From a phage, in the sequence record PX068456.1: a stretch of DNA of 64,000 nt, one strand, 5' to 3'. Of the stretch, positions 1 through 14,527 are shown one piece after another (the first letter of the stretch is position 1; every line of letters begins with the position of its first letter). Made by a program: the position numbers and the translations under genes. The notes under the pieces were generated by a model that was not told where the DNA came from, did no database searches, and saw only the letters and a program-made list of their open reading frames with translations.

Positions 1-1403
1 AACGCGATTTTTAGCGCCCCCCGATTTCTGCCGACCGTCCCCCTCAAATATCAATGAGAATTATTATCATTTGCATTATCATTCAATGACTTATAAGACT
101 TTTGATTATTTTCTAAGCAAGAAAGGCATTACTCACAACAAAACAGATAAATTCTAAGCAAATCAATGGCTTGGCAAGTCTAAACATCTATATACACCTT
201 GCCAAATGAAATGATCCTGCGTGAAATAGTGCCACCCGTGGAAGATAGCTGATAATGATTATCATTTGCATACTTTCTATACTATAAAACGCCCTAAAAA
301 TCAAAATAATTCTGATTTATTGCGCTTTTAAGAAAGTAGGCTCAACAAATAAGGAGGTACATTGCAACAAATAGGGATATTATTGGGGCAATAGTATGAA
401 AAACCATCTATTCATATATAAATAATTTTGCGCAATAGTGTTAATATTTTTCTTGTCAAGAAAGATTTCTTTGTGTTCACATAGCGCCCCCTGGAAGGTG
501 GCGCATTATGATCATCAGGGTCATTATTCACTATGTTTATTATTGGATAGCTTATATTATAGCCAATGTTCCAAACATTAGCTAATAATAACGCACCGCA
601 ACAATGTAAGGGAATACAATATACCATGTATATTGTTGCGCTTGCAGTTGTTGCAAGCTACATAAGCACAAATAATAACTATCGGTGATGGTTATTATGT
701 GGGGTGTGTAGTTGCGTTATTATTAGCCGCCTATGTGTCCGGCATAGGCTGCTAATGATACGCTTGCGAATTATATTTCTTGTTATAGTTATTGTATGAA
801 ATGATTACGGTATGAAATGATTACTTAGGTAATAGATAGGAAGGTAAAGGTTAGATCATAAATAGATAGGATATGAATTATTTAGTAATGTTACTAACGA
901 TTTAATAGTTACTTTGTGCAATAATTCAATAGATTATAGTTATAGTTTTAAAGGTTAGATAGATTATATTTAGCTTAGTAATGATTTATATTAGTTATTG
1001 TTGTTTAATATAAGGTTATCAATGAGATAGTAACAGTAAGTTATAAATAAAAGTAAGATAATTAGTTTTAATTTAGTTAGATAACTTATTATTTTATAGG
1101 TTAGATGGTCATAAGTTAAGAATGATTATCATTATTGCATTATGCAGTTTATTGCATAAATAATCAGCTATAAATAAGAATGATTATCATTTAAGAGGAA
1201 AGACAAGAAAAAGGCTGTTTTTGCCAGATAGTTGCATGGAGAAATTAAAAATAAGCGGTCTAAAACACGTTGTAAGCGCCTTATGATCTTCATGGTATGG
1301 TTGTTCATCTGCTCCTTGATTAGCTCGATACCGCGATCTATTCACTTTTTTCGGTGAACGTTTTTGATAGGTAAAAGCTATCATCTTTATTGAGGTAAAA
1401 AGA

Positions 1404-1424
1404 AAGGGCGCTTATTGCGCCCTT
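1404..1424 (-). terminator. intrinsic terminator hairpin AAGGGCGC-TTATT-GCGCCCTT
   Basis: inverted repeat followed by T-run on minus strand just downstream of 1439 stop; same hairpin family at 2245 and 5655. Confidence 0.5.
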
Positions 1425-1438
1425 GTATGGAATGTTAT

Positions 1439-1822
1439 TTACTGATAAGCTGGATCGTTTGTTATATCAATCCAATGAGTTAAATTAATTTTATTTTTTG
1501 CTTTCATTTTCTCGATCAACCGTTCGGCTAATGTTTCGGAACGAATATAAACATAATCGCTAAAATCTTGCCCCGTTTCTTCGTCGATCATTTCGCGATA
1601 TTCAATTTTCCCGATAAACGCGTGATTCAGCGCATAAGTTTTACCCGTGTACCAGTTATGTAAATGGATCTCGCATTTATAATCGTCGCTATAACCTTCG
1701 GTTGTTCTAACTTCAACCAAGTCACCTTTGAACACTGATAAGCACCACATAGGATCACGGTCTACAGCGCCGTTAAAATCTTTACCGTTTACAGTAGCCG
1801 CCAGGTTGATGATATTGCTCAT
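1439..1822 (-). CDS. hypothetical small early protein (127 aa)
   Basis: ORF track frame; start moved to internal ATG at 1822 with GAGGA RBS; promoter TTGACA-17-TATTAT upstream at 1863-1897. Confidence 0.5.
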   Translation of the reverse strand: MSNIINLAATVNGKDFNGAVDRDPMWCLSVFKGDLVEVRTTEGYSDDYKCEIHLHNWYTGKTYALNHAFIGKIEYREMIDEETGQDFSDYVYIRSETLAERLIEKMKAKNKINLTHWIDITNDPAYQ

Positions 1823-2244
1823 GGTGATTCCTCGTTTACCGTTTAAAATGATTTGCCCTACGTGATAAATAATAGTGTAAGCGTGATCCGGTGTCAATAG
1901 GTAGAATTGTAAAGATTTGATAGTTTATACCTTTGATGTTTTGTTGTTTAATAGGTATTAGCTATTAATATATAGCGGGATCTTCCGGTGATTATCTTCC
2001 CCTGTCCCCAGGTGCCGCCCGTTCCATAATAATAATCAAAAGCAGAATAAAAGGCAAGATAAAAAGCAAATTATTTCCTATGTGCTTTAAACGCTCTAGA
2101 TAGCTTTATAACGGCTTTTTCATCCTGGTAAGGTGATTAATCATCCCTACCTTGTTTAAGCGGTTATAATCGGTTTTAGGCTGTTTTACGCCACCTTTAC
2201 GCCTATTCTTTACGTGTTGTTTCCATCGTGAAAAAAGAATACAA

Positions 2245-2270
2245 AAAAGGGCGCTTAGTGCGCCCCTTTC
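2245..2270. terminator. bidirectional intrinsic terminator hairpin (GGGCGC stem)
   Basis: AAAAGGGCGCttagtGCGCCCCTTTC flanked by A/T runs, downstream of minus gene ending 2283. Confidence 0.5.
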
Positions 2271-2282
2271 TTTTACCGTGTA

Positions 2283-2672
2283 TTAATATTCATTATAATA
2301 CATCGCTAACTTTTCATCAAAAGCCGATTGACGATCAGCATACTCCCAGAAAATTTCCTGATCCTGTTGTTCGTCATCGTCCATCATATTAAATTGCGCA
2401 ACCTCCTGGTAAGTGATCGCCATATTATAACGATAGGTGATCTCTTCTGCGATGTTTTCCGGTAAAGATGATTCTACACTGTCTAACAGCATATTTAACA
2501 TCATTTCAGCCGCTTTTTCATCATTATCAAAACAGTAAGCAGACCATGCCGCATGATGTTTATTTTTCATCTTTGCAATCAAGCCATTGACTAAAAAAGG
2601 CGCTACGTTGTTAACGATACCCTGTAAAGATTGGAATTTTTCAACGTTAGAAACAGAAACCAGGTTGCGCAT
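2283..2672 (-). CDS. hypothetical small early protein (129 aa)
   Basis: ORF track frame; start at internal ATG 2672 downstream of promoter/hairpin cassette 2696-2756. Confidence 0.5.
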   Translation of the reverse strand: MRNLVSVSNVEKFQSLQGIVNNVAPFLVNGLIAKMKNKHHAAWSAYCFDNDEKAAEMMLNMLLDSVESSLPENIAEEITYRYNMAITYQEVAQFNMMDDDEQQDQEIFWEYADRQSAFDEKLAMYYNEY

Positions 2673-2695
2673 AGTATTTACCTTTTTGATTACCT

Positions 2696-2756
2696 GGCGG
2701 GAAACCATTTCCCGCCCTACGTGGTACACTTTACCAGATAACCGCATATTGTCAAA
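2696..2756 (-). promoter_or_regulatory. promoter + 5'UTR stem-loop cassette (TTGACA-16-TAAAGT, hairpin GGCGGGAAACCATTTCCCGCC)
   Basis: read on minus strand: -35 TTGACA, -10 TAAAGT, then perfect 9-bp-stem hairpin 2696-2716 before RBS. Confidence 0.55.
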
Positions 2757-2951
2757 CTATTTTTTACAAGGGATCAGTAAACTTCTCGCTACTGCTTCAC
2801 GAAAACCTTTACTTTTTATTAGATCTATTGTTGCAGGGTGACAAGTAAAAGCCTTTGACCATTTTTGATCACCTGGTTTACGGGCGAAAATGTATACTTC
2901 CCCGTCAATTTCATCCCAACGAGTATTGCTTGTTAGTTTTTTAAGCGCCAT
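2757..2951 (-). CDS. hypothetical small protein (64 aa)
   Basis: ORF track frame; internal ATG 2951 with AAGAGAAA RBS; cassette 2974-3030 upstream. Confidence 0.4.
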   Translation of the reverse strand: MALKKLTSNTRWDEIDGEVYIFARKPGDQKWSKAFTCHPATIDLIKSKGFREAVARSLLIPCKK

Positions 2952-2973
2952 GATGATTTCTCTTTTAGTTGTG

Positions 2974-3030
2974 AGCGGCACTATTGCCGCCCTACGCAAT
3001 ACATTCTACCCTATTTATAATTATTGTCAA
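2974..3030 (-). promoter_or_regulatory. promoter + stem-loop cassette (hairpin AGCGGCActattGCCGC variant)
   Basis: TTGACA at 3025-3030 (minus), hairpin 2974-2990. Confidence 0.5.
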
Positions 3031-3031
3031 A

Positions 3032-3301
3032 CTATTTTTTCAAGCTCGACCAGTCAAAACACGGCGGGATCTCGTTAAAACTTGTGCCCTGTAAAGCACA
3101 TAATTTTTTAGCAATAGCCGCCGTGACCTGGCGCTGTACGCGCGGATCTGCTACTGATTGGAGAAAGTAGGCGGCTTTATATGTGATCATGCTTTCGCCT
3201 GTTTCCTTGCTAACATGATGCACTATTTTAGCCTTATCATCTTTTACCAGGGTGTAACCGGATTCGATGGCCTTGATTGCAACGTCCAATGATATTTTCA
3301 T
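3032..3301 (-). CDS. hypothetical small protein (89 aa)
   Basis: ORF track; AAGAGATAAATC RBS; hairpin GGCGGGGAATACTCCCCCGCC at 3321-3341 in leader. Confidence 0.5.
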   Translation of the reverse strand: MKISLDVAIKAIESGYTLVKDDKAKIVHHVSKETGESMITYKAAYFLQSVADPRVQRQVTAAIAKKLCALQGTSFNEIPPCFDWSSLKK

Positions 3302-3320
3302 GATTTATCTCTTTATTGAT

Positions 3321-3341
3321 GGCGGGGAATACTCCCCCGCC
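3321..3341 (-). promoter_or_regulatory. 5'UTR stem-loop (GGCGGGGAATACTCCCCCGCC)
   Basis: perfect inverted repeat directly upstream of RBS of 3032..3301. Confidence 0.45.
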
Positions 3342-3348
3342 TTATTAA

Positions 3349-3519
3349 TTACTCTTCATCGTCGCCGTTATAGTATTCAATGCCGTTTTCATCGGTTACG
3401 GTAATATTAACGCCACCGATAGCAACACGATCACGGGCAAACGTCATGGCTTCATTTAAATCTTCAGACCAAAAAATATTGTGACCTTTGCGCGATACGT
3501 AAAACATAGTTGGGATCAT
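3349..3519 (-). CDS. hypothetical small protein (56 aa)
   Basis: ORF track frame; internal ATG 3519 after GAGAAGAGAAAC RBS; cassette upstream. Confidence 0.4.
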   Translation of the reverse strand: MIPTMFYVSRKGHNIFWSEDLNEAMTFARDRVAIGGVNITVTDENGIEYYNGDDEE

Positions 3520-3541
3520 GATTTGTTTCTCTTCTGCTGTG

Positions 3542-3599
3542 AGCGGCACTATTGCCGCCCTATGTGATAAACTTTACTACGTTGTTTGCCTACTGTCAA
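3542..3599 (-). promoter_or_regulatory. promoter + stem-loop cassette (TTGACA-17-TAAAGT, hairpin AGCGGCActattGCCGC)
   Basis: minus-strand reading of 3542-3599. Confidence 0.5.
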
Positions 3600-3600
3600 A

Positions 3601-3885
3601 TTATTTTTTAATGTTTTGCCCTACAAAATTGATCACTTCCTTAAGCTGTTTCTCAGTCATGATCGTGCCTGGTAATTCTTCTTTGATTTCTTGCGGTAAA
3701 TAGATATTACCGCGCCAGGTTAACAAGCAACCATTTTGATCTTTGCAGATAGAATAAGAGAAGATCCACTCATTATCATTCTCAAGCTCCCAAAAGCACA
3801 AAAAATCTTCTTTCCCTAAGTTTTCAACGGTTAAGCATAAGCCGCGACGTGCTGCATAGTTGGAAAGTGCTTTTGTGATCTTCAT
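3601..3885 (-). CDS. hypothetical small protein (94 aa)
   Basis: ORF track; RBS AGAAGAGATAAGAT; cassette 3906-3967 upstream. Confidence 0.5.
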   Translation of the reverse strand: MKITKALSNYAARRGLCLTVENLGKEDFLCFWELENDNEWIFSYSICKDQNGCLLTWRGNIYLPQEIKEELPGTIMTEKQLKEVINFVGQNIKK

Positions 3886-3905
3886 ATCTTATCTCTTCTG
3901 TTAAG

Positions 3906-3967
3906 GCGGGGAAACCATTTCCCCGCTCTATGAGATACAATATATTACTTATCAGGTGTGCTGTCAA
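3906..3967 (-). promoter_or_regulatory. promoter + stem-loop cassette (TTGACA-17-TATATT, hairpin GCGGGGAAACCATTTCCCCGC)
   Basis: minus-strand reading. Confidence 0.55.
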
Positions 3968-4291
3968 TCAATAATCTTTAATATTTTCTACATTTACAAA
4001 AGGGCGTTTATTTTCTAAGTTTTCGCCGTACCATTGCCCCATGTTGATTTCTGCGGTGCGCAACCAGGACATGCCGCGTTCTATCTTTTTGCTCGCAATG
4101 TCGATCCGGCTTTTGCATAGTGCTTTAGCTTGCAATGTAAAAACACTATCGCCCTGTAATGCTTCCAGGTCATCATGTGCAAGGCGATACTCTTTAAAGC
4201 CTGATTCTATCATTTCAATCGCATCAAGTAAACGCGCACGATGATAGAAAAAATCAGAGTTATCCAAATAAACACCGATCACAGATTTCAT
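3968..4291 (-). CDS. hypothetical protein (107 aa)
   Basis: ORF track frame; internal ATG 4291 with AAAGGG RBS; promoter TTGACA at 4357-4362. Confidence 0.45.
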   Translation of the reverse strand: MKSVIGVYLDNSDFFYHRARLLDAIEMIESGFKEYRLAHDDLEALQGDSVFTLQAKALCKSRIDIASKKIERGMSWLRTAEINMGQWYGENLENKRPFVNVENIKDY

Positions 4292-4391
4292 AATTTTACC
4301 CTTTTGTTTGCGGCCTTTGCCGTTTTCAAGATATATTTTAAAGCATAACAAAAAATTGTCAAGCCTTTAAAGCGTACAACTATAAAACCTA

Positions 4392-4511
4392 TTAAAACAC
4401 AATATATAATAACATGGCTATAGTAGCAATACAACATAAAGCCATGCTTGTTTTCCTTCCTTCCTCATATGCTGGATTTATTACGCTATACTGTACGGGA
4501 ATAATTTTCAT
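4392..4511 (-). CDS. tiny hydrophobic peptide (39 aa), putative membrane
   Basis: ATG at 4511 preceded by AAGGAAACAGC; promoter TTGACA-17-TATGCT at 4560-4584; below ORF-track size cutoff. Confidence 0.25.
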   Translation of the reverse strand: MKIIPVQYSVINPAYEEGRKTSMALCCIATIAMLLYIVF

Positions 4512-4620
4512 GCTGTTTCCTTAATGTTTTAAAACGTGGTTTACAATAGAAACAAGCATACAGAAGAAAAAAGATCCTGTCAATAAGATCCCGAAAAATA
4601 AATGTAAATAGGGCATGGTT

Positions 4621-4923
4621 TTACTCCTTAAAAAAATCATTGACAATTAAACTGATAACGCCCAGCACCAGATCACCAGGTAGCGCCGCGCTTTCGTTGT
4701 TGCTTGTTTGCACTTCCTCACTAGTATCAGCATTATAGATCGCATGGTAAGCAATAGTATAATAACCTTTTGTTATTTCTTTAAGATTAATGATTAGCAC
4801 GTTATTTGTTTCATCTTGAAATAATTTAGCGGTGATAGTATTGTTTTCTTTTACACTATCGACTTTTATTGATGGATCATTTACACCAGAAAAAAGAAAA
4901 AACGTTTTAGCTATGCCGTTCAT
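4621..4923 (-). CDS. hypothetical protein (100 aa)
   Basis: ORF track; AAGGAG RBS; promoter TTGACA-18-TAAGAT at 4940-4974. Confidence 0.5.
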   Translation of the reverse strand: MNGIAKTFFLFSGVNDPSIKVDSVKENNTITAKLFQDETNNVLIINLKEITKGYYTIAYHAIYNADTSEEVQTSNNESAALPGDLVLGVISLIVNDFFKE

Positions 4924-4970
4924 GTAGTTCTCCTTTGTTGTGTGTATCTTATAACGTGCTTTCTATATTG

Positions 4971-5372
4971 TCAATCTTTTATCTCGGTACATTTTGCTAG
5001 GGTATACGTTGCAAGTGCTGACACTAGTTTTTCATTGCTACGATCTGCGGCTGTACTGTGTACTTTTTGAATACTTTTTAACCACGGCGTAAAATTTTGA
5101 GTAGTGAGCACACTGGTAATAATTTCACATGGCACATCTTCATTTAAGCCATTAACAATAGATTTATCTATTTTTGCCGTTAATTGTGTAACAGCACCAT
5201 AAGCGATCATGTGTGAATCCTCCATGATTTCATCGGGGATCGCGTTATTAATGATCATGACGTTTTCCATTGCATCAACGGCGCTTAATTCTGCTACTGT
5301 GGAGGATATCGCCGCGCTAGATGTTCCAACCATGCCAAAAGAGATTAAACCAGCGATCAATAATTTTTTCAT
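4971..5372 (-). CDS. putative secreted/periplasmic protein (N-terminal signal peptide MKKLLIAGLISFGMVGTSSAA)
   Basis: ORF track frame; hydrophobic leader with AxA-like cleavage region; start chosen at 5372. Confidence 0.45.
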   Translation of the reverse strand: MKKLLIAGLISFGMVGTSSAAISSTVAELSAVDAMENVMIINNAIPDEIMEDSHMIAYGAVTQLTAKIDKSIVNGLNEDVPCEIITSVLTTQNFTPWLKSIQKVHSTAADRSNEKLVSALATYTLAKCTEIKD

Positions 5373-5380
5373 TTCTTGCC

Positions 5381-5563
5381 TCATATATGTTTTATTGAGA
5401 TTATATTGTCACTATATACAACGTTTTTCAACGTGTCAATAAAAATTTTATTCCCTTCAATCCCCAGGATCACGCCGCTAGTTATAAAGCCATATTGATC
5501 ACGATATCGGGCGCATAACCTTTGCCCCTGGGCTAGTGCCTTGCTTATTTCGTCTAATTTCAT
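5381..5563 (-). CDS. hypothetical small protein (60 aa)
   Basis: ORF track frame; internal ATG 5563 with AGGAG RBS. Confidence 0.35.
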   Translation of the reverse strand: MKLDEISKALAQGQRLCARYRDQYGFITSGVILGIEGNKIFIDTLKNVVYSDNIISIKHI

Positions 5564-5654
5564 TTTTAAAGCTCCTGTAAAGCTGTCTAACGTTGATTTA
5601 TAGGCTTGCCCTGGCGTTACCATTGCCTATGGGTAACAAGCCTCTATATAAGCT

Positions 5655-5680
5655 AAAAGGGCGCTTATTGCGCCCTTTTT
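5655..5680 (-). terminator. intrinsic terminator hairpin AAAAGGGCGCttattGCGCCCTTTTT
   Basis: third copy of GGGCGC hairpin; immediately downstream of small ORF stop at 5682. Confidence 0.5.
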
Positions 5681-5681
5681 G

Positions 5682-5819
5682 TTATCCGTTCCAGTGTCTT
5701 TTAGTGCTGCGATCTCTTTTTGTTTTGTTCCGCTTGTCGCCTTTCTTGGTGATCTCTTCGTTCCAATCTTTACGCGCTTTGTTGCGGTTGAATTTTTCGA
5801 TCTGCTGTGATGCGTTCAT
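5682..5819 (-). CDS. tiny basic protein (45 aa, Lys/Arg-rich)
   Basis: ATG 5819 with GAGAGGAAAAAC RBS, translationally coupled to upstream gene, followed by terminator. Confidence 0.35.
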   Translation of the reverse strand: MNASQQIEKFNRNKARKDWNEEITKKGDKRNKTKRDRSTKRHWNG

Positions 5820-5833
5820 GTTTTTCCTCTCGA

Positions 5834-6193
5834 TTACGCTACGTTATGATATTTTGCCAAAGTTACGATCATGCTTGCAATATATAACCAATAATTTTCC
5901 CGCTCACGGGTAACGGTTGTTTCTTTGCTTGTTTCTTTTATGTACTTCCATTCAATTAACAAGTGATCGATCTCGTTATAATCAAAAGCAATATTGACTT
6001 CTGACGGTAAACCTTGTAACCATGAGGCTATTGCCTTGATCACGTTATAATTGTAACGTTTTTGATTATCGGGATACCAGTATTCAGAATTAAAACGGCG
6101 CATCAGTTCGGTGATTTTTTCTTTTTCGGTTGTAGTACCATCAAAAGAAATAGCCGATAAAATGTAAGTTTTAATTGCTTTTGCTGATTTCAT
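5834..6193 (-). CDS. hypothetical protein (119 aa)
   Basis: ORF track; RBS AAGAGATAAGATT; cassette 6214-6272. Confidence 0.5.
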   Translation of the reverse strand: MKSAKAIKTYILSAISFDGTTTEKEKITELMRRFNSEYWYPDNQKRYNYNVIKAIASWLQGLPSEVNIAFDYNEIDHLLIEWKYIKETSKETTVTRERENYWLYIASMIVTLAKYHNVA

Positions 6194-6213
6194 AATCTTA
6201 TCTCTTTATTGAT

Positions 6214-6272
6214 GGCGGGAAACCATTTCCCGCCGTTGTTGTTACTTTACTTATAAATGATGCTACTGTCAA
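6214..6272 (-). promoter_or_regulatory. promoter + stem-loop cassette (TTGACA-17-TAAAGT, hairpin GGCGGGAAACCATTTCCCGCC)
   Basis: minus-strand reading. Confidence 0.55.
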
Positions 6273-6279
6273 GCGGATA

Positions 6280-6450
6280 TTATTTATTTTTTAACGTTAA
6301 TGTTCCCAGCTTATCAGCGTGACGCAGACCAGGAAAGATCCATTTTCCTGATTCATCTTTCACCGGGGCTTTAAGCGTAGCGCCCAGGTTGGCGGCATTA
6401 ACTTTACGTGCAACGTTGCGAGCGGCTTCACGGGTGGCGAAAGTGATCAT
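6280..6450 (-). CDS. hypothetical small protein (56 aa)
   Basis: hand-translated; ATG 6450 after GAGAAGAGGAAACATC RBS; cassette 6474-6534 upstream; below ORF-track cutoff. Confidence 0.4.
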   Translation of the reverse strand: MITFATREAARNVARKVNAANLGATLKAPVKDESGKWIFPGLRHADKLGTLTLKNK

Positions 6451-6473
6451 GATGTTTCCTCTTCTCTTTGTTA

Positions 6474-6534
6474 GGCGGTGGGCTATTCCACCGCCTTAAT
6501 GAATATAGTTTACTTTATTTTACCAGGTTTGCAA
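6474..6534 (-). promoter_or_regulatory. promoter + stem-loop cassette (TTGCAA-17-TATATT, hairpin GGCGGTGGGCTATTCCACCGCC)
   Basis: minus-strand reading. Confidence 0.45.
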
Positions 6535-6540
6535 GTAGTT

Positions 6541-6756
6541 TTATGAAATAATTGTCAAAGTAAAATCATAATCTTTTGACAGTTTATATTGCACCTTGTT
6601 ACCGTATATGTCACCTTTACGTAAAGATCCACGGATACCGATAACATCCTTCACGTCTTTTAAATTTTTCACGCCTGTAATGTCTTTGTTGAAATACTCG
6701 TCATCTGAAAATAAAACTTGACTTGCATTTTTTAACAGTGTGCGGATATTAACCAT
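6541..6756 (-). CDS. hypothetical small protein (71 aa)
   Basis: ORF track; cassette 6781-6837 upstream. Confidence 0.45.
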   Translation of the reverse strand: MVNIRTLLKNASQVLFSDDEYFNKDITGVKNLKDVKDVIGIRGSLRKGDIYGNKVQYKLSKDYDFTLTIIS

Positions 6757-6780
6757 CGTGATAATCTCTCTTCTGTTATG

Positions 6781-6837
6781 AGCGGCACTATTGCCGCCCT
6801 ACGTAATACAGTTTACTCTTTTTCTTTCCCGTGTCAA
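6781..6837 (-). promoter_or_regulatory. promoter + stem-loop cassette (hairpin AGCGGCActattGCCGC)
   Basis: TTGACA at 6832-6837 (minus), hairpin 6781-6797. Confidence 0.45.
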
Positions 6838-6846
6838 CAATCTTTT

Positions 6847-7074
6847 TCAGATTAATTCATCCAGGCATAACAGACGATCAACATTGAGATCGGTCAGGCT
6901 AATCGTTGGCACCTGGTAGGATTCGATGTACTCAACGCTCGACCATTGCCCAAAGTTAGCGACCGCCCAGCTATTCAAGGAGGAGTGAAGATCATCCCCT
7001 TTCTTCTCGGTGATAACTGCTACTACCTGGGAGATTCCAACCGTGCCGGATACGCGAACAATAACGATAGCCAT
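6847..7074 (-). CDS. hypothetical small protein (75 aa)
   Basis: ORF track; RBS AAAGAAAGG; cassette 7097-7156. Confidence 0.45.
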   Translation of the reverse strand: MAIVIVRVSGTVGISQVVAVITEKKGDDLHSSLNSWAVANFGQWSSVEYIESYQVPTISLTDLNVDRLLCLDELI

Positions 7075-7096
7075 AATGATAACCTTTCTTTCATTT

Positions 7097-7156
7097 GGCG
7101 GGAAACCATTTCCCGCCCTATGTGATAAACTATACCAGATTAAAAAACGTTGTCAA
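7097..7156 (-). promoter_or_regulatory. promoter + stem-loop cassette (TTGACA-16-TATAGT, hairpin GGCGGGAAACCATTTCCCGCC)
   Basis: minus-strand reading; best-matching cassette. Confidence 0.6.
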
Positions 7157-7165
7157 CTGCTTTTA

Positions 7166-7405
7166 TTACATTCCTACCATAGCGGCGCGGATACTGGTTT
7201 TACTGAATTTATAGCCATCTGGCGTAGTATTTTGGCCCATTTCGTTAAGTAGTGACATCATTTCACGCGCGGCGTTATCTTTATTGTTGTTCACGGCTAT
7301 AAATTCTTTTGCCATATTATAAAAACCTGGATCGTTATTAATCCAAAGGCTTACATTCCAATGAGTTTTATTTTTGTGACCGTTGTACATTTTAGATTTA
7401 GCCAT
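7166..7405 (-). CDS. hypothetical small protein (79 aa)
   Basis: ORF track; RBS AAAGAGATTAACATC; cassette 7430-7488. Confidence 0.45.
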   Translation of the reverse strand: MAKSKMYNGHKNKTHWNVSLWINNDPGFYNMAKEFIAVNNNKDNAAREMMSLLNEMGQNTTPDGYKFSKTSIRAAMVGM

Positions 7406-7429
7406 GATGTTAATCTCTTTTTCAGTGAG

Positions 7430-7488
7430 GCGGGAACTATTCCCGCTCTCGATATAAGTATTATATGCTTTTTATTCGTGCTGTCAAT
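7430..7488 (-). promoter_or_regulatory. promoter + stem-loop cassette (hairpin GCGGGAACTATTCCCGC)
   Basis: TTGACA at 7483-7488 (minus). Confidence 0.45.
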
Positions 7489-7493
7489 GCTTT

Positions 7494-7859
7494 TTATAAA
7501 TCTTTTTTACGTTTTACATCGCTTGCATGACTGTATACAGCGATCCCATTGTCACGGCAAAAACGGGAAAGGTAAGCATAATTTGAAAAGTCTTTACCTT
7601 CCAGGTTGATAACCTTGCTAAACTCTTCTAGGGCAACGGTATCAAAATGATCCCCATAGCCATATTGAAACGGAACGTTAACGACTTCAATCAGTTTACC
7701 GCCGATCTCAACGTCAACCATCAAAGAGAAATAAGTATTACCATAAGACTTTTGAAACCAGCGACGGGCGCTAATATGTACCGCTTCAATGCTGGATAGT
7801 TCAATTTTAGCAGTGTTAGCCAGGGTAGCATAAGCAGAAACATTGATATTTTTAGCCAT
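7494..7859 (-). CDS. hypothetical protein (121 aa)
   Basis: ORF track; RBS AAAGAGATTAAAGACT; promoter TTGACA-17-TAATAA at 7885-7935. Confidence 0.5.
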   Translation of the reverse strand: MAKNINVSAYATLANTAKIELSSIEAVHISARRWFQKSYGNTYFSLMVDVEIGGKLIEVVNVPFQYGYGDHFDTVALEEFSKVINLEGKDFSNYAYLSRFCRDNGIAVYSHASDVKRKKDL

Positions 7860-7954
7860 AGTCTTTAATCTCTTTTGATTAGTTAGGAGTATTCCCGATA
7901 AAAGTTATTATGCTTGTACTATCGTTCGTTGTCAATAGCACAAGACTAAAACTT

Positions 7955-8134
7955 TTAACGATAATCATCATATGCTTTATTGACCTGGCGAATATAACAT
8001 TCAAAAGCTAGATCAATAGATTTATATTCACGGATATATTCACCATAGGAAACCACATACATTTCTATAGCTTCCTCATATGCCAGGATGATAGAATCTA
8101 AACCTACGATCTCAGTCTTTGCAATAATAGCCAT
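7955..8134 (-). CDS. hypothetical small protein (59 aa)
   Basis: hand-translated; AAGGAATAAAAGC RBS; consensus promoter TTGACA-17-TATAAT at 8168-8198. Confidence 0.4.
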   Translation of the reverse strand: MAIIAKTEIVGLDSIILAYEEAIEMYVVSYGEYIREYKSIDLAFECYIRQVNKAYDDYR

Positions 8135-8167
8135 GCTTTTATTCCTTAGTAATGTTTCAATCTATAT

Positions 8168-8198
8168 AAGCATTATAGCTTACTGATTTCAGGTGTCA
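8168..8198 (-). promoter_or_regulatory. sigma70-consensus promoter (TTGACA-17-TATAAT)
   Basis: perfect -35 and -10 hexamers on minus strand. Confidence 0.6.
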
Positions 8199-8279
8199 AG
8201 TGATTTTTTATTTCACCTTTGAGGCGTTGCCCCGCTCTATGTGGTATATATTACGGGGCTTGTTTGCATATGTCAAGCC

Positions 8280-8834
8280 TTACACAATGCAATTTTCATA
8301 ATTTTTTAAGGCTTGTCTTTTTTCCTCTTCCGTCGGCATGTATGGCTGGATCTCTTCCTCTTCCAGGGTGGGCATGATTTCTTCCTCTTCCTCCTGGTCG
8401 CCCTGGTCTTCCTCTTGCGCTACTGCAACAAGTTTATTGATCTTCTCCTGGGCTTTAATCAATTTTGCATCTAGCACCATTTTAGCGGTGTTGTATACAG
8501 TCCAGGCCATGCGCTTTTCTTCGTATGCCTTATCTAGTGCGGCTAATTTAGCGGGATACTCTTCCAACACCTTAAAAGCCGGATCAATGCTGTACAAGGG
8601 ATTATTTTTAGCGTCATCGCTTGGATCTGCGGCGCTTGCAATGTCAGCGTTACCATTCGCCAGCCATCCAGGACGAACGGATCGCGTCCTGGTGTTGCCG
8701 TTGCTCTTTGCCGCTCGATTTCCTATCTGCTCCCCGCTATACCCTACCATGTGATCGATCATGTCATCTGGTATTATGCGCGGATCATTTGCGTCATGCT
8801 TTACCCAGGACTGGATCACATATTCACGCCCCAT
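8280..8834 (-). CDS. hypothetical protein with highly acidic Glu-rich C-terminal segment (184 aa)
   Basis: ORF track; RBS AGAAGAGG. Confidence 0.5.
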   Translation of the reverse strand: MGREYVIQSWVKHDANDPRIIPDDMIDHMVGYSGEQIGNRAAKSNGNTRTRSVRPGWLANGNADIASAADPSDDAKNNPLYSIDPAFKVLEEYPAKLAALDKAYEEKRMAWTVYNTAKMVLDAKLIKAQEKINKLVAVAQEEDQGDQEEEEEIMPTLEEEEIQPYMPTEEEKRQALKNYENCIV

Positions 8835-8835
8835 G

Positions 8836-9096
8836 TTAGTTCGCCTCTTCTGTTAGTAGTTTACATACCTTAAACATGCTTGCAGCGTCTTTTGACGGTA
8901 GCCAGCCTATCCGATACACTCCAGGATCTGGATTAGTTACATCAGTCAGTTGCGCGTTGCGATGATTAAAAATAGTGTAACCGCCGCCAGCACGGGGATA
9001 AACATTATCTTTAAACCTGATAGCGTATCTCGCCAGGTCGAACGTTGTAGCATGTTCAAAAGCGATCACATTATCAAAAACTTTTAGAAAAAACAA
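8836..9096 (-). CDS. hypothetical protein (86 aa), TTG start
   Basis: ORF track; GGAGGA RBS 5 nt before TTG. Confidence 0.4.
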   Translation of the reverse strand: MFFLKVFDNVIAFEHATTFDLARYAIRFKDNVYPRAGGGYTIFNHRNAQLTDVTNPDPGVYRIGWLPSKDAASMFKVCKLLTEEAN

Positions 9097-9098
9097 GA

Positions 9099-9245
9099 TT
9101 ATCCTCCCCAGCGTTTAAAGCCCGTTGCACGGTTATTTTTTAGCTCTCGTTTTAGTCTCTTGCAACGGTTTACAAGTGCAAACCGTGCCGGAGTCGTAAC
9201 AGTAGCGCCGTTTTTGGTGTGAATACTCATTACATATTGTTTCAT
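9099..9245 (-). CDS. tiny basic protein (48 aa)
   Basis: hand-translated; ATG 9245 after hairpin cassette 9265-9317; stop overlaps RBS of next gene. Confidence 0.3.
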   Translation of the reverse strand: MKQYVMSIHTKNGATVTTPARFALVNRCKRLKRELKNNRATGFKRWGG

Positions 9246-9264
9246 AAAGTTTTATCCTATGTAA

Positions 9265-9317
9265 GCGGGAATAGTTCCCGCTTTAAGATAGCTTATCAGG
9301 TTTTAGTGCAATGTCAA
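9265..9317 (-). promoter_or_regulatory. promoter + stem-loop cassette (TTGACA-17-TATCTT, hairpin GCGGGAATAGTTCCCGC)
   Basis: minus-strand reading. Confidence 0.45.
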
Positions 9318-9323
9318 CCGTTT

Positions 9324-9686
9324 TTATTCGTAAATTTTACCGCTTTCTACCCATACCATAACACGGCGCATGTTATCCCATGCATCTTGTCGCAGATTTA
9401 AGGCATGCAATTCTTCCGTGGTGCTCATACCTGGAACGGGCTTGCTATATGTTACAAAGAGATCGCCAGCATATTCATAAGCCAGGGTAAGATCACATTG
9501 AATCATCTTTTTAATCATAGCATCAAGCATCATATTAGCGGCATGTTGATCACGTTTCAGCGGTAACGTTGCGATCTGTGTGCGATAGCTTTCGATCCGT
9601 GCATCCACTGCATCACGCGAAAGGTTTTTCACGTCATCGCGGAAAGATACCAGGTTTAACATGATAGTATTGATTTGCTTGCTCAT
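9324..9686 (-). CDS. hypothetical protein (120 aa)
   Basis: ORF track; RBS AAAGAAAGGG; cassette 9709-9769. Confidence 0.5.
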   Translation of the reverse strand: MSKQINTIMLNLVSFRDDVKNLSRDAVDARIESYRTQIATLPLKRDQHAANMMLDAMIKKMIQCDLTLAYEYAGDLFVTYSKPVPGMSTTEELHALNLRQDAWDNMRRVMVWVESGKIYE

Positions 9687-9708
9687 TGTGTTACCCTTTC
9701 TTTGTTTT

Positions 9709-9769
9709 GGCGGGAAACCATTTCCCCGCCTTATGGAGTATATATTACCAAATTATTTTTCAGTGTCAA
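9709..9769 (-). promoter_or_regulatory. promoter + stem-loop cassette (hairpin GGCGGGAAACCATTTCCCCGCC)
   Basis: TTGACA at 9764-9769 (minus). Confidence 0.5.
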
Positions 9770-9772
9770 GAC

Positions 9773-10045
9773 TTAAAGCAAAAACGCTACATCTTGCGCT
9801 TTTAGTGTAGTGTCGATCATTTTCGGGCTTTTATAATCCACAAATCGCGCGGTTTTTTCAATAGCGAAACCGAGATAATCTTGTTTATTGAAATTACATT
9901 CTTTTTTAAACGTTTCCCGTGCCACTGTGATCGCTGCGTCCAGGGATAAACGTCCATCAATATTGATGTTAGCGAAAGATCCGCCACCGCGCATAGGTTT
10001 ACCAGTGATGCCAGCTACGATCATTGATGCGCTATATGATGCCAT
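9773..10045 (-). CDS. hypothetical protein (90 aa)
   Basis: ORF track; RBS AAGAGAGAAATAATC; cassette 10068-10128. Confidence 0.5.
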   Translation of the reverse strand: MASYSASMIVAGITGKPMRGGGSFANINIDGRLSLDAAITVARETFKKECNFNKQDYLGFAIEKTARFVDYKSPKMIDTTLKAQDVAFLL

Positions 10046-10067
10046 GATTATTTCTCTCTTCTGTTAT

Positions 10068-10128
10068 GAGCGGCACTATTGCCGCCCCTCGACAAGATGA
10101 ATACTACGCTACCAGGTGAGGAACGTCA
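10068..10128 (-). promoter_or_regulatory. promoter + stem-loop cassette (TTGACG, hairpin AGCGGCActattGCCGC)
   Basis: minus-strand reading; first cassette of the leftward array. Confidence 0.45.
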
Positions 10129-10240
10129 ACCATTTTTTTAATCTTTTTTTCATTTCTTTTTTGCTTGCTATCTATAAAGGAAACGGCTATTATCTTTCTA
10201 CCGCGCCAACCAGGGCGCACATCAAAGAAAGGGCGATACC

Positions 10241-10507
10241 ATGACAAATACTCCTTTACATCTCATGCACTCATTGGGCTGGCAAGGCGGCACGGTGCAC
10301 CAGGTAGCAAGCGCAACGGGCTTAAAGGTTGAAACCGTTCTCAACCTGGGCGATCATAAGGTGGAAGAAATAGAAAACTTTGATCCGTTCGCTGATGGTT
10401 ATCTATGGGCTTGCAGTGGCGGCGGGGAAAGCAAGATCCCGCCAGGGGCGCGGGGCGACATGTATTTTTGGTTAGGTGTCCTATCCTGGCAAGAAAACAA
10501 AAAATAA
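10241..10507 (+). CDS. hypothetical protein (88 aa) in GC-rich island
   Basis: ORF track; RBS AAAGAAAGGGCG; local GC visibly higher than flanks. Confidence 0.4.
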   Translation: MTNTPLHLMHSLGWQGGTVHQVASATGLKVETVLNLGDHKVEEIENFDPFADGYLWACSGGGESKIPPGARGDMYFWLGVLSWQENKK

Positions 10508-10508
10508 T

Positions 10509-10538
10509 CTTGACAAGCCCAGGGATCGGGCTTATACT
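10509..10538 (+). promoter_or_regulatory. sigma70-like promoter (TTGACA-18-TATACT) with no ORF downstream
   Basis: hexamers read directly; downstream ~150 nt GC-rich and lacks an ATG-initiated ORF. Confidence 0.4.
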
Positions 10539-10759
10539 GTTTTACATACAGAAGAGGAAACGCCACCCCCACGGCGTAAAGGCGGGGCTAACATACCAGG
10601 GGGCACTGGTTGGAAGGTTGATCGCCGGTAGCTCGTCCAAAATAAATTTGTAAAGAAATGTAAAGATAAAAATAATCGCTTGCTTTTGTTGTTGGTTATG
10701 CTATTCTTATTGTATGGCGAGGGGACACGGGAGCGCGAGACAAACACCGCCCCTGCGCG

Positions 10760-10885
10760 TTATTCTGTAAATGAGAAAAATTCTCATTTGCTAATGATTC
10801 TCATTCTCTTAGTGAGAATGCTTATCATTTACATAATTAAATGATAATGATTCTCATTTACAAATGAGAATGATTATCATACGCA
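10760..10885. repeat. cluster of Fur-box-like palindromes (AATGAT-T-ATCATT / ATGAGAAT..ATTCTCAT)
   Basis: at least four overlapping copies; related copies at 56-92, 250-275, 1118-1192. Confidence 0.45.
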
Positions 10886-10904
10886 TACCCATAAAAACAC
10901 GAAA

Positions 10905-11104
10905 TTGAACTTTTCATTTTTGATTTTTCTACGGAAAAAGGCAAAAAAACTTTAAATAAACTGGGGAATTTTTAAAAAATTGAAGTTTTCATTTTCAAAA
11001 TCTGGATAGAAATACATACAAAAACTTTAAATAATTTTGACCAAACTTGAACTTTTCATTTTCAAAATTTGTATCCAAAAATCTGTAAAAACTTTAAATA
11101 ATTT
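10905..11104. repeat. three ~60-65 bp direct repeats (TTGAACTTTTCATTTTCAAAAT ... AAAAACTTTAAATAA)
   Basis: units at about 10905-10960, 10980-11036, 11047-11104 in an AT-rich non-coding stretch. Confidence 0.55.
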
Positions 11105-11320
11105 TGTCCTTTTTATAAAAATGATTTTACTGTTCTGTTATAAATAGTAGTTAAGAGATAGTATGCCTTTTAAAAACCAGATATCATAATCCAACAAACA
11201 AATTAAATAATTTATTAACAGAGTACAAAATAATATTTACTCTGAATATATTATTCAGAGGGTGAATTTCCGTACATGAAACCCACACCCCTTTTTATAA
11301 AAATAAAAATTTTCAAAATA

Positions 11321-11872
11321 TCAGGAAATATCAGATTGTGTTTTTAGAAAAACAGCAAGGTCTGTATGCCATTTTCCTAAAAGATTTTGTCCTTTCCAAC
11401 AATCCTTATTTTCCACGTCCCGATCCCACATCCCCATTTTGATACCATAAATAGAATCATAGGGGCTTGCCTCTACGAACTCCTTATCTGCGTAAGCGAT
11501 AAGTTTATTTTTGAGATCTTCATTTTGTGTGTATTTAAGATACAAACCACGCTTGACAATCTTCTCCCGTAAAGAAGCCCAGGTATCTTCATCATAATCT
11601 TTAACTAATCTGCCTAGTCGCTTATAATATGCTTGTTCTTTTTCTCCTGTATATCTTAGATCTCCGGTTAAAATAGAAGATGCAATGTTGTAATCATAAA
11701 ACAAACATGCTTTTCTCCACATCATATATTGTTCCACACAAGTAAATTCAACAGAACTTGTAATAGAATTATTATACTTGGGAGCTAAAGGTTCAATAAA
11801 AGATGATAGATACCAGTTGCTAAATTCATCTTTTGCCGAGAAGAAGAACACATACTTATCAGTAATCCGCAT
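11321..11872 (-). CDS. NADAR (YbiA-like, DUF1768) domain protein
   Basis: motifs FFFS..EFSNW, EQYMMW, EASPYDSIYGIKMG and KGQNLLGK match YbiA/NADAR pattern by eye. Confidence 0.6.
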   Translation of the reverse strand: MRITDKYVFFFSAKDEFSNWYLSSFIEPLAPKYNNSITSSVEFTCVEQYMMWRKACLFYDYNIASSILTGDLRYTGEKEQAYYKRLGRLVKDYDEDTWASLREKIVKRGLYLKYTQNEDLKNKLIAYADKEFVEASPYDSIYGIKMGMWDRDVENKDCWKGQNLLGKWHTDLAVFLKTQSDIS

Positions 11873-12862: not shown

Positions 12863-12900
12863 CTACTACTCCTCTTATTAAATCTGGCATTAATGCAAGA

Positions 12901-12922
12901 AAACCCGCCGAAGCGGGTTTTT
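12901..12922. terminator. intrinsic terminator hairpin AAACCCGCcgaaGCGGGTTTTT
   Basis: GC stem with T-run; between minus genes. Confidence 0.5.
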
Positions 12923-12936
12923 ATTTGCTGGCTTAC

Positions 12937-14064: not shown

Positions 14065-14075
14065 TTTAACCCCTT

Positions 14076-14513: not shown

Positions 14514-14527
14514 TCTTTATTCCTCAC

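Follow-up and report, generated by a model that had tools for sequence, protein, structure and literature searches.

Fur-box-like palindromes in the terminal repeat and gene-free boundary DNA of a phi92-like coliphage

What would sequences resembling binding sites of the iron regulator Fur do in gene-free DNA of a virulent phage? The stretch analysed here (the window, 64,000 nucleotides of record PX068456.1) is from a phi92-like Justusliebigvirus, a coliphage, and palindromes close to the Fur operator consensus had been noticed at four of its loci (56-92, 250-275, 1118-1192 and 10760-10885). The original prediction proposed that they place early transcription under host iron control, bind a phage regulator, or act as recombination or packaging signals. 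All four loci indeed hold palindromes, far above chance. We found no prior description of these phage Fur-box arrays in the literature.

Nine sites at the terminus and at an internal boundary

With at most one mismatch, AATGATTATCATT gave 12 strand-matches at 8 positions of the window (0.27 expected), and the longer unit AATGAGAATGATTMTCATT, with up to three mismatches, gave 13 (0.21 expected). Seven 19-mers match the 19-bp Fur consensus at 15 or more positions (56-74, 251-269 with 17/19, 1118-1136 with 16/19, 10790-10808, 10814-10832, 10843-10861 and 10866-10884), against 0.52 expected (maximum 2) from second-order Markov resamples. The true unit is a 10-1-10 palindrome, AAATGAKAAT-N-ATTMTCATTT, that contains the Fur-family 7-1-7 core TGAnAAT-N-ATTnTCA and prefers the half-site GAGAAT where the Fur consensus has GATAAT. 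Overlapping Fur-like 19-mers are in a register of exactly 6 bp, the spacing at which stacked Fur dimers occupy opposite DNA faces. This phasing agrees with Chen et al. 2007 (PMC2189734). The scores in bits given below are from a weight matrix built only from nine E. coli K-12 Fur operator sites.

Positions 1-342 form the direct terminal repeat (DTR): they align with the phi92 left end (342-1), homology ends exactly there, phi92 is annotated with a 343-bp DTR at both ends, and several related records start or end at about 343-365. The repeat houses two sites. T1 (50-80, AATGAGAATTATTATCATTTGCATTATC; 18.0 bits), 55 bp from one DTR edge, is made of overlapping 19-mers at 50, 56 and 62 that match 14, 15 and 14 of 19 consensus positions in the 6-bp register, while T2 (245-272, GATAATGATTATCATTTGCAT; 17/19, 22.0 bits), the best site of the window, is 73 bp from the other edge. 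About 0.8 kb further in, the predicted 1118-1192 locus is present as two separate sites, at 1118-1136 and 1176-1194, namely T3 (1115-1136, AAGAATGATTATCATTATT; 16/19, 17.4 bits) and T4 (1170-1194, AAGAATGATTATCATTTAA; 14/19 with a partner 6 bp upstream, 14.0 bits). T3 lies in AT-rich gene-free DNA, past the terminator that follows the last array gene; the intrinsic-terminator-like hairpin closing this small-gene array (1404-1424, minus strand; 8-bp stem with 6 G-C pairs, T-rich tail) is upstream, in the sense of transcription, of T4 and T3.

The dense cluster expected at 10760-10885 could be refined to five units spaced 20-29 bp: C1 (10767-10791, AAATGAGAAAAATTCTCATTT; 19-mers at 10767 and 10773, 13/19, 10.1 and 10.3 bits), C2 (10790-10808, GCTAATGATTCTCATTCTC; 16/19, 18.8 bits), and three units with a partner 6 bp upstream, C3 (10808-10832, GAGAATGCTTATCATTTAC; 15/19, 18.3 bits), C4 (10837-10861, AAATGATAATGATTCTCATTTAC; 16/19, 18.4 bits) and C5 (10860-10884, AAATGAGAATGATTATCATACGC; 15/19, 17.7 bits). 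The window thus contains nine sites, or eleven per genome when both terminal repeats are counted.

The cluster is located 10.8 kb from the end in gene-free DNA, with the 3' end of a convergent ORF on either side. Conserved promoter-like blocks precede it, and three iterons of about 70 bp follow. P1, a strong sigma-70-type promoter-like site (10510-10538, plus strand; TTGACA-17-TATACT, 11/12), is aimed at it and is followed by a conserved non-coding block (10541-10666) with 83-85% identity in distant genera, weak covariation and no family matched in an Rfam search. Directly upstream of the cluster (10680-10760, plus strand), a promoter-like element read from the sequence, P2 (TTGCTT-16-TATTCT, 10680-10707), scores below the promoter-scan threshold in the window and is a putative promoter. 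It is followed by a GC-rich hairpin block (10714-10760, ATGGCGAGGGG..GCGAGACAAACACC) common to the phi92-like, Phapecoctavirus, Klebsiella KP2025 and PVP-SE1 loci, and in all genera examined the first cluster unit begins about 50 nt past this block. The iterons (10902-11122, plus strand; repeat family D1, three direct copies of 67-75 bp) flank the cluster; their core AAAAACTTTAAATAATTT is found only at this locus within the window, and equivalent repeats come after the cluster in other genera.

In the orientation of phi92, a single strand carries the small-gene array, which extends from gp225 across the terminal repeat as far as gp036. The palindromes had been thought to border this hyperplastic region at both ends. 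The five-unit cluster is indeed upstream of the array, but the other four sites are mid-array, in and beside the terminal repeat, and no Fur-like cluster was found at the far end, near phi92 12 kb.

Strength as Fur sites and recurrence in other phages

The weight-matrix check proposed with the original prediction came out in its favour: instead of scoring below threshold, flagged sites made up the top eight hits in the 64 kb, at 14.0-22.0 bits. True K-12 operators scored 7.7-14.3 bits in a leave-one-out analysis, their sites being the best consensus match in known Fur-regulated intergenic regions and not footprint coordinates, and the held-out fur autoregulatory operator was recovered by the same matrix at 17.2 bits. 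Consensus matches are 15-17/19 for the phage sites and 12-16/19 for the K-12 operators. Over a phi92-type genome of about 150 kb, strong sites occur only at these loci, plus one coding outlier of 16.5 bits. Moreover, the fecI operator GAGAATGGTTATCATTACA is a near-copy of the phage unit, and the 15-mer AATGAGAATCATTAT was found, in the literature searched, only within annotated Fur boxes. Judged by sequence, the phage sites are as competent for Fur as real operators, or more so.

Invariant columns make up 94.8% of the terminal sites and 87.1% of the non-coding DNA around them (p = 0.024; the six genomes compared are closely related and not independent). T1 is conserved in the six Justusliebigvirus genomes, the T3 core is invariant across the six, and phAPEC8, at about 72% identity, retains the sites, T1 included, at corresponding places. 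Four genera preserve the architecture of the cluster, with one to five units: one unit is left in PVP-SE1, and JLBYU50 has lost two by a 53-bp deletion. Site positions are conserved across genera; unit number is plastic, and any requirement must therefore be loose.

The unit is found well beyond these relatives. The palindromes of the injection stop signal (iss) annotated in T5 (9548-9725) are made of it, and the T5-like phage Gostya9 has it too: C5 is the same unit as T5 9653-9677 and Gostya9 L004 1530-1548, and C4 falls in a 53-bp stretch that matches Gostya9 at 87%. An O157:H7 prophage has an identical copy of the T2 20-mer, a lone site lying between lysis and terminase genes. Pseudomonas phage VCM, Colwellia phage 9A and viral contigs of 21-53% GC also have these units, and in three unrelated phage contigs (L127, L067 and L008) arrays precede terminase operons by 0.34-0.67 kb. 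The IMG/VR examples were selected for matching the motif, and their count is near chance for a 16-base pattern, so that the information lies in their clustering alone. The lineages have no flanking protein family in common, and searches with the first-step-transfer proteins of T5, A2 among them, gave no homologue (E > 0.1) in the window or phi92 1-50 kb. Because no phage-encoded binder shared with T5 was found among these proteins, the host factor Fur is the best candidate binder.

Candidate roles of the sites

We favour, tentatively and at slightly under an even chance, the reading that the palindromes are high-affinity host Fur sites set in the few gene-free stretches, away from protein-coding promoters, and that they act as a landmark. 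Once the DNA enters the cell, iron-loaded Fur dimers would fill the two DTR sites, the two beside the DTR and the five-unit array. Such occupancy, which we infer to occur in vivo, would turn the genome ends, and the boundary of the terminal small-early-gene block, into a nucleoprotein landmark built from a host factor. The complex would presumably couple a DNA-level process to the iron state of the cell: end recognition or processing, DNA entry, or outward non-coding transcription from P1 and P2 into the array and the iterons. As genome copies accumulate, the sites would in addition sequester Fur. Gene-free regions are few, so the placement of the landmark may partly reflect where spare DNA exists. 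The packaging signal of the original prediction gains some support from the distances to the DTR edges and from the arrays upstream of terminase operons.

A landmark on terminal and boundary DNA is favoured over classical iron control of early genes. In the latter, the sites would overlap phage promoters, and early or non-coding transcription would be repressed in iron-rich cells and released when iron is scarce. Operator-grade Fur boxes would suit this role, 83% of E. coli Fur clusters overlap sigma-70 promoters (PMC2189734), and weak promoter-like matches do overlap units on the plus (54-82, 229-256 and 10851-10880) and minus (10870-10841) strands. Furthermore, a Fur roadblock could halt the P2 transcript, whose inferred start is about 50 nt upstream of the array, and the L127, L067 and L008 arrays head the packaging operon. 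Against this, the overlapping matches reach just 9/12 and are not enriched in window 1-1500 (6 vs 9.5 expected), while better promoters are free of sites: P1, the promoter-like site of the minus-strand small-gene array (10129-10101; TTGACG-17-TAGTAT, 9/12), whose first ORF is 9773-10045 and which is separated from the cluster by about 630 bp, and the promoter within the DTR (9/12 in the window, 10/12 in phi92). Of the two DTR sites, one is about 45-65 bp upstream of the -35 hexamer of this promoter, and the second follows its inferred start at about 100 bp. No promoter-like element of at least 10/12 is overlapped by a Fur-like site, the cluster sits between convergent ORF ends, the T5 units come after the last pre-early gene and a terminator in more than 1 kb without a gene, and no gene adjacent to the sites is iron-related. 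This geometry makes control of early transcription by iron, as originally proposed, unlikely; given the 9/12 matches, small Fur-repressed promoters may exist within the arrays.

Could the sites mainly titrate Fur as phage DNA replicates, derepressing host iron uptake and iron-sparing and supplying iron to the NrdAB ribonucleotide reductase? NrdA and NrdB are encoded by phi92, in the Fur titration assay, repression of the regulon is relieved by Fur boxes in multicopy, and the eleven sites per genome would compete with weaker host operators; any spare non-coding DNA would do, which fits the few gene-free regions. However, T5 has the same units yet degrades host DNA in first-step transfer, so derepression of host genes cannot be their purpose there. 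Titration also leaves the conserved positions relative to the repeat edges and the GC-rich block unexplained, and PVP-SE1 retains a single unit. We consider it rather improbable as the main role.

A phage-encoded binder (early regulator, small terminase or replication initiator) with a specificity that only happens to be Fur-like appears similarly improbable. The preference for GAGAAT makes a distinct protein with overlapping specificity conceivable, outer AAA/TTT flanks extend the palindrome to 10-1-10, the arrays are beside phage-specific iterons and in the terminal repeat, where phage proteins act, and several phi92 early genes are annotated as putative small regulators. But GAGAAT hexamers are present in real Fur operators, fecI among them, adjacent ORFs gave no DNA-binding domain hits, and the regulator option is weakened by the spread of the unit through unrelated phages that share neither a flanking gene family nor, in the case of the T5 first-step-transfer proteins, a binder.

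Lastly, a protein-independent cruciform, hairpin or recombination substrate at genome ends, with an incidental likeness to Fur boxes, is very unlikely. In its favour, the palindromic units lie in AT-rich DNA, units have recombined with one another in JLBYU50, and the T5 iss has long been discussed as repeats and palindromes. But structure would preserve symmetry rather than one particular sequence, whereas TGAnAATnATTnTCA itself turns up again in phages that are unrelated, among them genomes of 53% GC in which it is sharply distinct. The AU-rich stems are also short and weak. Taken as a whole, the original interpretation is partly supported.

Comparison with known systems

The phage sites share with E. 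coli Fur boxes the 19-bp palindromic consensus, the 7-1-7 core, the hexamer structure and the overlapping sites spaced by 6 bp; the arrays span about 120 bp, and E. coli Fur clusters are reported to span 19-142 bases. In matrix and consensus scores they are at or above the fep, fhu, cir, fec, tonB and fur operators. Unlike these, they are neither over a good promoter nor beside iron-related genes, they are found in the terminal repeat and a gene-free internal region of a virulent phage, their half-sites favour GAGAAT, and their units also occur as discrete palindromes 20-29 bp apart, besides the overlapping register.

The Fur-bound landmark would also recall the IHF sites of lambda cosB, where a host protein binds tens of bp from the terminase cutting positions: T1 and T2 are set inward of the repeat edges by 55 and 73 bp, and other phages have units upstream of terminase genes. 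In contrast to cosB, the factor would be Fur, for which we know of no evidence of a role in any packaging reaction, and 10.8 kb separate the internal cluster from the ends.

A further parallel is the iss region of T5 and its relatives (the DRE repeats and palindromes of Repeat Region 3). The sequence unit is the same (T5 TTAAATGAGAATCATTATCATTTGCAT, window AAATGAGAATGATTATCATACGCAT), both are in a gene-free region about 7.5-10 kb from the genome end, at the inner edge of a small-early-gene block, and both have lineage-specific direct repeats on their flanks. The flanks themselves are non-homologous, the T5 region is within a 10.2-kb terminal repeat whereas that of the window is 342 bp, the iss has paired DnaA boxes, a LexA-like box and a nick whereas window 1-13 kb contains no DnaA or LexA boxes, and two-step DNA transfer is documented for T5 and not for phi92-like phages. 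The units of the phi92-like arrays recur in the injection stop region of T5.

Layout of the genome end and anatomy of the palindromes

The first 12,000 nucleotides of the window are 95-96% identical to phi92-like coliphages (Justusliebigvirus, Stephanstirmvirinae). In the phi92 annotation each genome end carries a direct terminal repeat of 343 bp; the left end of phi92, read from 342 to 1, aligns to window 1-342, and since the homology ends exactly at that base the window starts at the physical genome end and is reversed relative to phi92. The terminal repeat (1-342) is followed by gene-free AT-rich DNA (343-1438), by an array of small genes on the minus strand (1439-10045) homologous to phi92 gp248 back to gp226, by a single gp224-like ORF on the plus strand (10241-10507), by gene-free DNA with no convincing ORF (10508-11320) and, from 11321 on the minus strand, by genes beginning with those for a NADAR-domain protein and an endonuclease. 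In the phi92 orientation the small-gene array runs on, on the same strand, across the terminal repeat up to gp036. Records titled Campylobacter phage A145, A110a, A150 and C3 (MG065645, MG065689, MG065639, MG065656) are likewise ~96% identical to phi92-like coliphages; the A145 record is flagged UNVERIFIED and classified as Justusliebigvirus, and the Campylobacter host label of these records looks doubtful.

Fur-box-like palindromes had been predicted at four places and were found at all four: in the terminal repeat (50-80 and 245-272), in the sub-terminal DNA (1115-1136 and 1170-1194), and as a cluster at 10767-10884. With at most one mismatch, AATGATTATCATT matches the window 12 times against 0.27 expected, and a longer unit 13 times against 0.21. 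Moreover, seven windows agree with the 19-bp Fur consensus GATAATGATAATCATTATC at 15 or more of 19 positions (0.52 expected), all seven of them in the flagged loci. The natural unit is a 10-1-10 palindrome, AAATGAKAAT-N-ATTMTCATTT, which holds the 7-1-7 core of the Fur family, and the cluster consists of five such units spaced by 20-29 bp. For most of the strong sites a partner lies exactly 6 bp off, so that sites overlap in a 6-bp register (50/56/62, 245/251, 1170/1176, 10767/10773, 10808/10814, 10837/10843 and 10860/10866); a 6-bp spacing is the reported rule for overlapping Fur dimers (PMC2189734).

The sub-terminal AT-rich DNA also carries several short direct repeats (780-1110), among them two copies of TATGAAATGATTAC at 795-830, and others with AGGTTAGAT at 845-871, 940-960 and 1086-1121. 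In phage muut a repeat_region is annotated at the homologous place.

Similarity to Fur operators and position relative to promoters

The sites were graded against eight promoter regions of E. coli K-12 that are classic targets of Fur (fepA-fes, fepD-entS, fepB-entC, fhuA, cirA, fecIR/fecA, tonB and fur). At their best consensus match the phage sites reach 15-17 of 19 positions, compared with 12-16 of 19 for the K-12 operators (fepA-fes, fepD-entS, fepB-entC, fhuA, cirA, fecI, fecA, tonB, fur). A symmetrised log-odds matrix was built from nine K-12 operator sites, picked by consensus match inside known regulated regions rather than from footprints. With this matrix the phage sites score 14.0-22.0 bits and the nine training operators 7.7-14.3 bits (leave-one-out), while the fur autoregulatory operator, outside the training set, scores 17.2 bits. 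The phage scores are thus at or above the range of true operators, and the Fur-box likeness claimed in the original prediction, against which sub-threshold matrix scores were to count, is borne out.

Furthermore, the eight best matrix matches in the whole 64 kb are exactly the flagged sites, with 22.0 bits (start at 251), 18.8 (10790), 18.4 (10843), 18.3 (10814), 18.0 (56), 17.7 (10866), 17.4 (1118) and 14.0 bits (1176). At 12.1 bits or more there are eight matches in the flagged loci and one in the remaining 63.5 kb. Chen et al. found a site above 17 bits in 42 of 363 K-12 Fur clusters, using another matrix whose scale is not directly comparable (PMC2189734). Within the searched literature the exact 15-mer AATGAGAATCATTAT occurs only inside annotated Fur boxes. 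The phage half-sites favour GAGAAT, a hexamer also present in the fecI operator; this preference leaves room for a protein of overlapping specificity.

We tentatively favour the reading that the palindromes are Fur-binding arrays serving as host-factor landmarks in terminal and boundary DNA. In that role they may tie the processing of ends, the entry of DNA, or local non-coding transcription and the priming of replication to iron-loaded Fur.

Positions were scanned in phi92 1-86,000 and in the window, the counterpart of roughly the other 62-64 kb of phi92. Apart from three weaker or isolated coding matches (13.7 bits at phi92 11161, 16.5 bits at phi92 24507 and 13.75 bits at window 25140), all sites of at least 13 bits belong to the internal cluster, the terminal repeat or the sub-terminal DNA. 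The opposite limit of the small-gene array, near 12 kb in phi92, has no site cluster.

Among the rival explanations, classical Fur-repressed promoters fare best, and even these we hold to be unlikely. A sigma-70 promoter is overlapped by 83% of E. coli Fur clusters (PMC2189734). Here, no promoter-like element that scores at least 10/12 is overlapped by a site; the promoter-like matches that do overlap units reach 9/12 only, and window 1-1500 is not enriched in them (6 found vs 9.5 expected). The best promoter of the terminal repeat reads TTGACA-17-TAGACT (10/12) in phi92 and TTGGCA-17-TAGACT (9/12) in the window; one site precedes its -35 hexamer by ~45-65 bp, and the other follows the inferred start by ~100 bp. 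The cluster is flanked by the 3' ends of two convergent ORFs and is ~630 bp away from the array's own promoter-like site on the minus strand (10129-10101). Two plus-strand promoter-like elements upstream are aimed at it, P1 (10510-10538, 11/12) and the weaker P2 (10680-10707), followed by a GC-rich block. Its neighbours encode the NADAR-domain protein, a Gp30.8-like protein and small proteins with no assigned function, and a domain search of these proteins returned no iron-related or DNA-binding domain. The original prediction had proposed that early transcription could be placed under host iron control; with the stronger promoter-like sites left free and the cluster lying between convergent ORF ends, the geometry does not suggest classical control of this kind, and small Fur-repressed promoters may exist inside the arrays.

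Titration of Fur would be an unavoidable side effect of the arrays at high copy number. That they are purely a sponge for Fur is improbable, a reading weakened by the early destruction of host DNA by T5.

We consider it equally improbable that the palindromes bind a phage-encoded protein. In neither the window nor phi92 1-50 kb is there a homologue of any of the 16 first-step-transfer proteins of T5, the DNA-binding A2 included (E > 0.1 throughout), and the lineages that bear arrays have no flanking protein family in common. As candidate regulators, the ORF at 10241-10507 gave no meaningful Pfam match and only PHROG families with no assigned function, and the ORF at 412-627 matched nothing in Pfam or PHROG. 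Finally, structural signals that act independently of any protein are very unlikely.

Conservation, neighbouring elements and occurrence in other phages

Columns of the terminal sites are 94.8% invariant in a small sample of six related Justusliebigvirus genomes, the non-coding DNA around them reaching 87.1% (Fisher p = 0.024). In phAPEC8 (Phapecoctavirus, ~72% identity in the region) Fur-like sites are kept at corresponding positions of the gene-free terminal region. The architecture of the internal cluster is common to phi92-like phages, Phapecoctavirus ukendt, Klebsiella phage KP2025, PVP-SE1 and one IMG/VR contig, in the conserved order of a promoter-like element, a GC-rich block ATGGCGAGGGG..GCGAGACAAACACC, palindromes from ~+50 and then AAACTTTAAAT-type repeats. 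The number of units per cluster varies from one (PVP-SE1) to five, and a 53-bp deletion between two repeated units of JLBYU50 (aligned to window 10798-10850) has removed two of the five palindromes. The copy number of the array shifts by recombination between its own repeats, as in JLBYU50; the motif is maintained and the copy number is not.

Several other elements adjoin the cluster. P1 is a near-consensus sigma-70 promoter-like site (TTGACA-17-TATACT) followed by a conserved block of ~125 nt (together 10510-10666), which is 83-85% identical in the distant genera represented by Cronobacter CR3, Klebsiella KB57, Pectobacterium phiTE and Salmonella PVP-SE1, with indel lengths not divisible by three. 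Covariation in this block, a candidate conserved phage small RNA, amounts to just two compensatory pairs. An Rfam scan of window 1-12 kb returned nothing significant, so the region is not explained by a known RNA family. At 10680-10760, a GC-rich hairpin block (ATGGCGAGGGG..GCGAGACAAACACC..CTGCGCG) kept in four genera comes after P2, and its end always lies ~5-10 nt ahead of the first palindrome. This block can be read as an 18-codon ORF in the window and in ukendt; a frame-shifting indel in other genera argues for an RNA or DNA function. The 14-mer GCGAGACAAACACC was dropped as an anchor for IMG/VR searches, as it gave mostly chance matches and only a handful of true homologues. Directly after the cluster, in DNA of ~25-30% GC, stand three direct repeats of 67-75 bp with the core AAAAACTTTAAATAATTT (iterons, 10902-11122), which are confined to this spot within the window and have equivalents in other genera; together with the outward-facing promoters their layout resembles that of a replication origin. 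A repeated AACTTTAAATAATTT element was considered as a dispersed phage promoter and rejected because it is present in one intergenic region only.

Outside this group, Pseudomonas phage VCM and Colwellia phage 9A also have the palindrome core in gene-free DNA, and multi-site arrays are found in IMG/VR contigs of 21-53% GC, where the sites are sharply conspicuous in the GC-rich contigs. By our own estimate the raw number of IMG/VR contigs with the 19-mer pattern is about that expected by chance for the size of the collection; it was therefore set aside, and only multi-site clustering was counted as evidence. The Fur box is conserved across bacteria, and the retention of the motif over such hosts and lineages would fit a broadly conserved host protein. 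When the cluster was compared by BLAST with 5,426 E. coli genomes, only weak short matches came up, in prophage, small-plasmid and integrase-adjacent DNA; none fell on an iron-gene promoter, and the search, uninformative for Fur, did bring to light the prophage site between lysis and terminase genes described below.

The position of several arrays hints at a possible role near genome ends or in packaging. The two sites of the terminal repeat are 55 and 73 bp in from the edges at which terminase must cut. In three IMG/VR contigs the arrays (L127 152-356, L067 5782-5909, L008 5710-5942) precede operons encoding the large terminase, at 0.34-0.67 kb from the first gene, and in a fourth, the 41-kb contig L062, the array (47-310) lies within 310 bp of the contig start. 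Such places near ends and terminase genes may also be simply where non-coding DNA is available. These four contigs are unrelated (39-53% GC) and carry arrays of three to five perfect TGAnAATnATTnTCA sites; L062 has, in addition, seven tandem GAGAAT hexamers within 100 bp of its start. A single site, GATAATGATTATCATTTGCA, identical to window 251-270 (22 bits), is present in a prophage of E. coli O157:H7 strain 4276 (1499-1523), in a 455-bp gap with lysis genes on one side and a DUF1441 family gene and then the large terminase gene on the other. In Klebsiella phage FKP3 Fur-like sites recur at intervals of ~500-525 bp in the first 1.7 kb of the record (43, 543, 1067, 1593 and 1651), the first two being identical 19-mers, which suggests a tandemly repeated terminal segment with one Fur-like site per copy.

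As operators of bacterial iron genes Fur boxes are textbook knowledge, and phages are known to carry them upstream of cargo genes, stx1 among them. The sit operon is another cargo example (PMC6969025). Fur boxes in non-coding regions of T5, phi92, rV5-like or lytic phages are not described in the searched literature, which did not include the phi92 genome paper. Fur boxes as such being well known, what appears to be new here is that virulent phages carry operator-grade boxes as arrays in architectural DNA free of genes: within the terminal repeat, at the boundary of the early block and, for other lineages, in front of terminase genes. The arrays point to a recurrent and unexplained element in virulent phages. 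If Fur binds them, this would suggest that the iron status of the host is sensed or exploited by lytic phages at the level of DNA; if it does not, a widespread sequence-specific phage element is still in need of a binder.

Comparison with the injection stop region of phage T5

In a distant-mode search the cluster region matched the T5-like phage Gostya9 (87% over 53 bp), and the 129-bp cluster alone matched 624 phage records, which from organism names and sampled rows appear to be largely T5-like phages together with Stephanstirmvirinae/Vequintavirinae. The match in T5 (NC_005859) falls in the annotated injection stop signal (iss, 9140-10149), within the left terminal repeat and the first-step-transfer DNA. 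Palindromic units of the type of the DRE, the repeats of the T5 iss region, are common to the window, to T5 9548-9725 (TTTTTAAATACGAATCATTATCATTCGTATT, TTTTTAAATGAGAATCATT twice, TTCTTAAATGAGAATCATTATCATTTGCATTT and TTTTTAAATGAGATTGATTCTCATTATCATTCGCATT) and to Gostya9 1320-1600. In the two T5-like phages they score 12.9-19.8 bits, the three strongest of T5 reaching 15.4-16.5 bits and those of Gostya9 up to 19.8 bits.

The T5 units adjoin DnaA boxes, a LexA-like box and the major nick. The LexA-like box, at ~9417-9436, is the near-perfect palindrome TACTGTATAAATATACAGTA; with its position beside the DnaA boxes and Fur-like units, the region may gather sites for several host DNA-binding proteins. 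Davison, comparing 25 T5-like phages, placed the shear point near 9618 (in a different T5 record, so that the correspondence is approximate) and named the adjoining DRE repeats as likely iss candidates, adding that their function could not be guessed and that the responsible host protein was unsolved; Fur was never named. Papers of 2020 and 2026 still describe the mechanism and the host factor of the region as unsolved. The conserved palindromes of the T5 injection stop region being built from the same units as the phi92-like arrays, Fur becomes a concrete candidate host factor for this old open question in T5 biology.

A bolder reading holds that the array is a T5-like pause or boundary of DNA entry in phi92-like phages, that Fur is the host factor of the T5 iss, and that such arrays are a general readout of iron status by virulent phages. 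The ~10.8-kb terminal block of small genes would then enter first with its promoter, and host iron status would be read at the stage of DNA entry or of the DNA end. We regard this as highly improbable.

T5 has paired DnaA boxes (IRD'-spacer-IRC') and a LexA-like box, whereas the window has no TTWTNCACA match in 1-15000 and no LexA or DnaA boxes in 1-13 kb, and the terminal repeat is ~10 kb long in T5 and 342 bp in the window. By these features of its sequence, the window region is thus not a member of the T5 iss type. The likeness between the two lies elsewhere, in the palindromic unit that they have in common, and in the position of the window's gene-free, repeat-rich region (10508-11320) at the inner edge of a block of small genes (1439-10045), 10.8 kb from the end.
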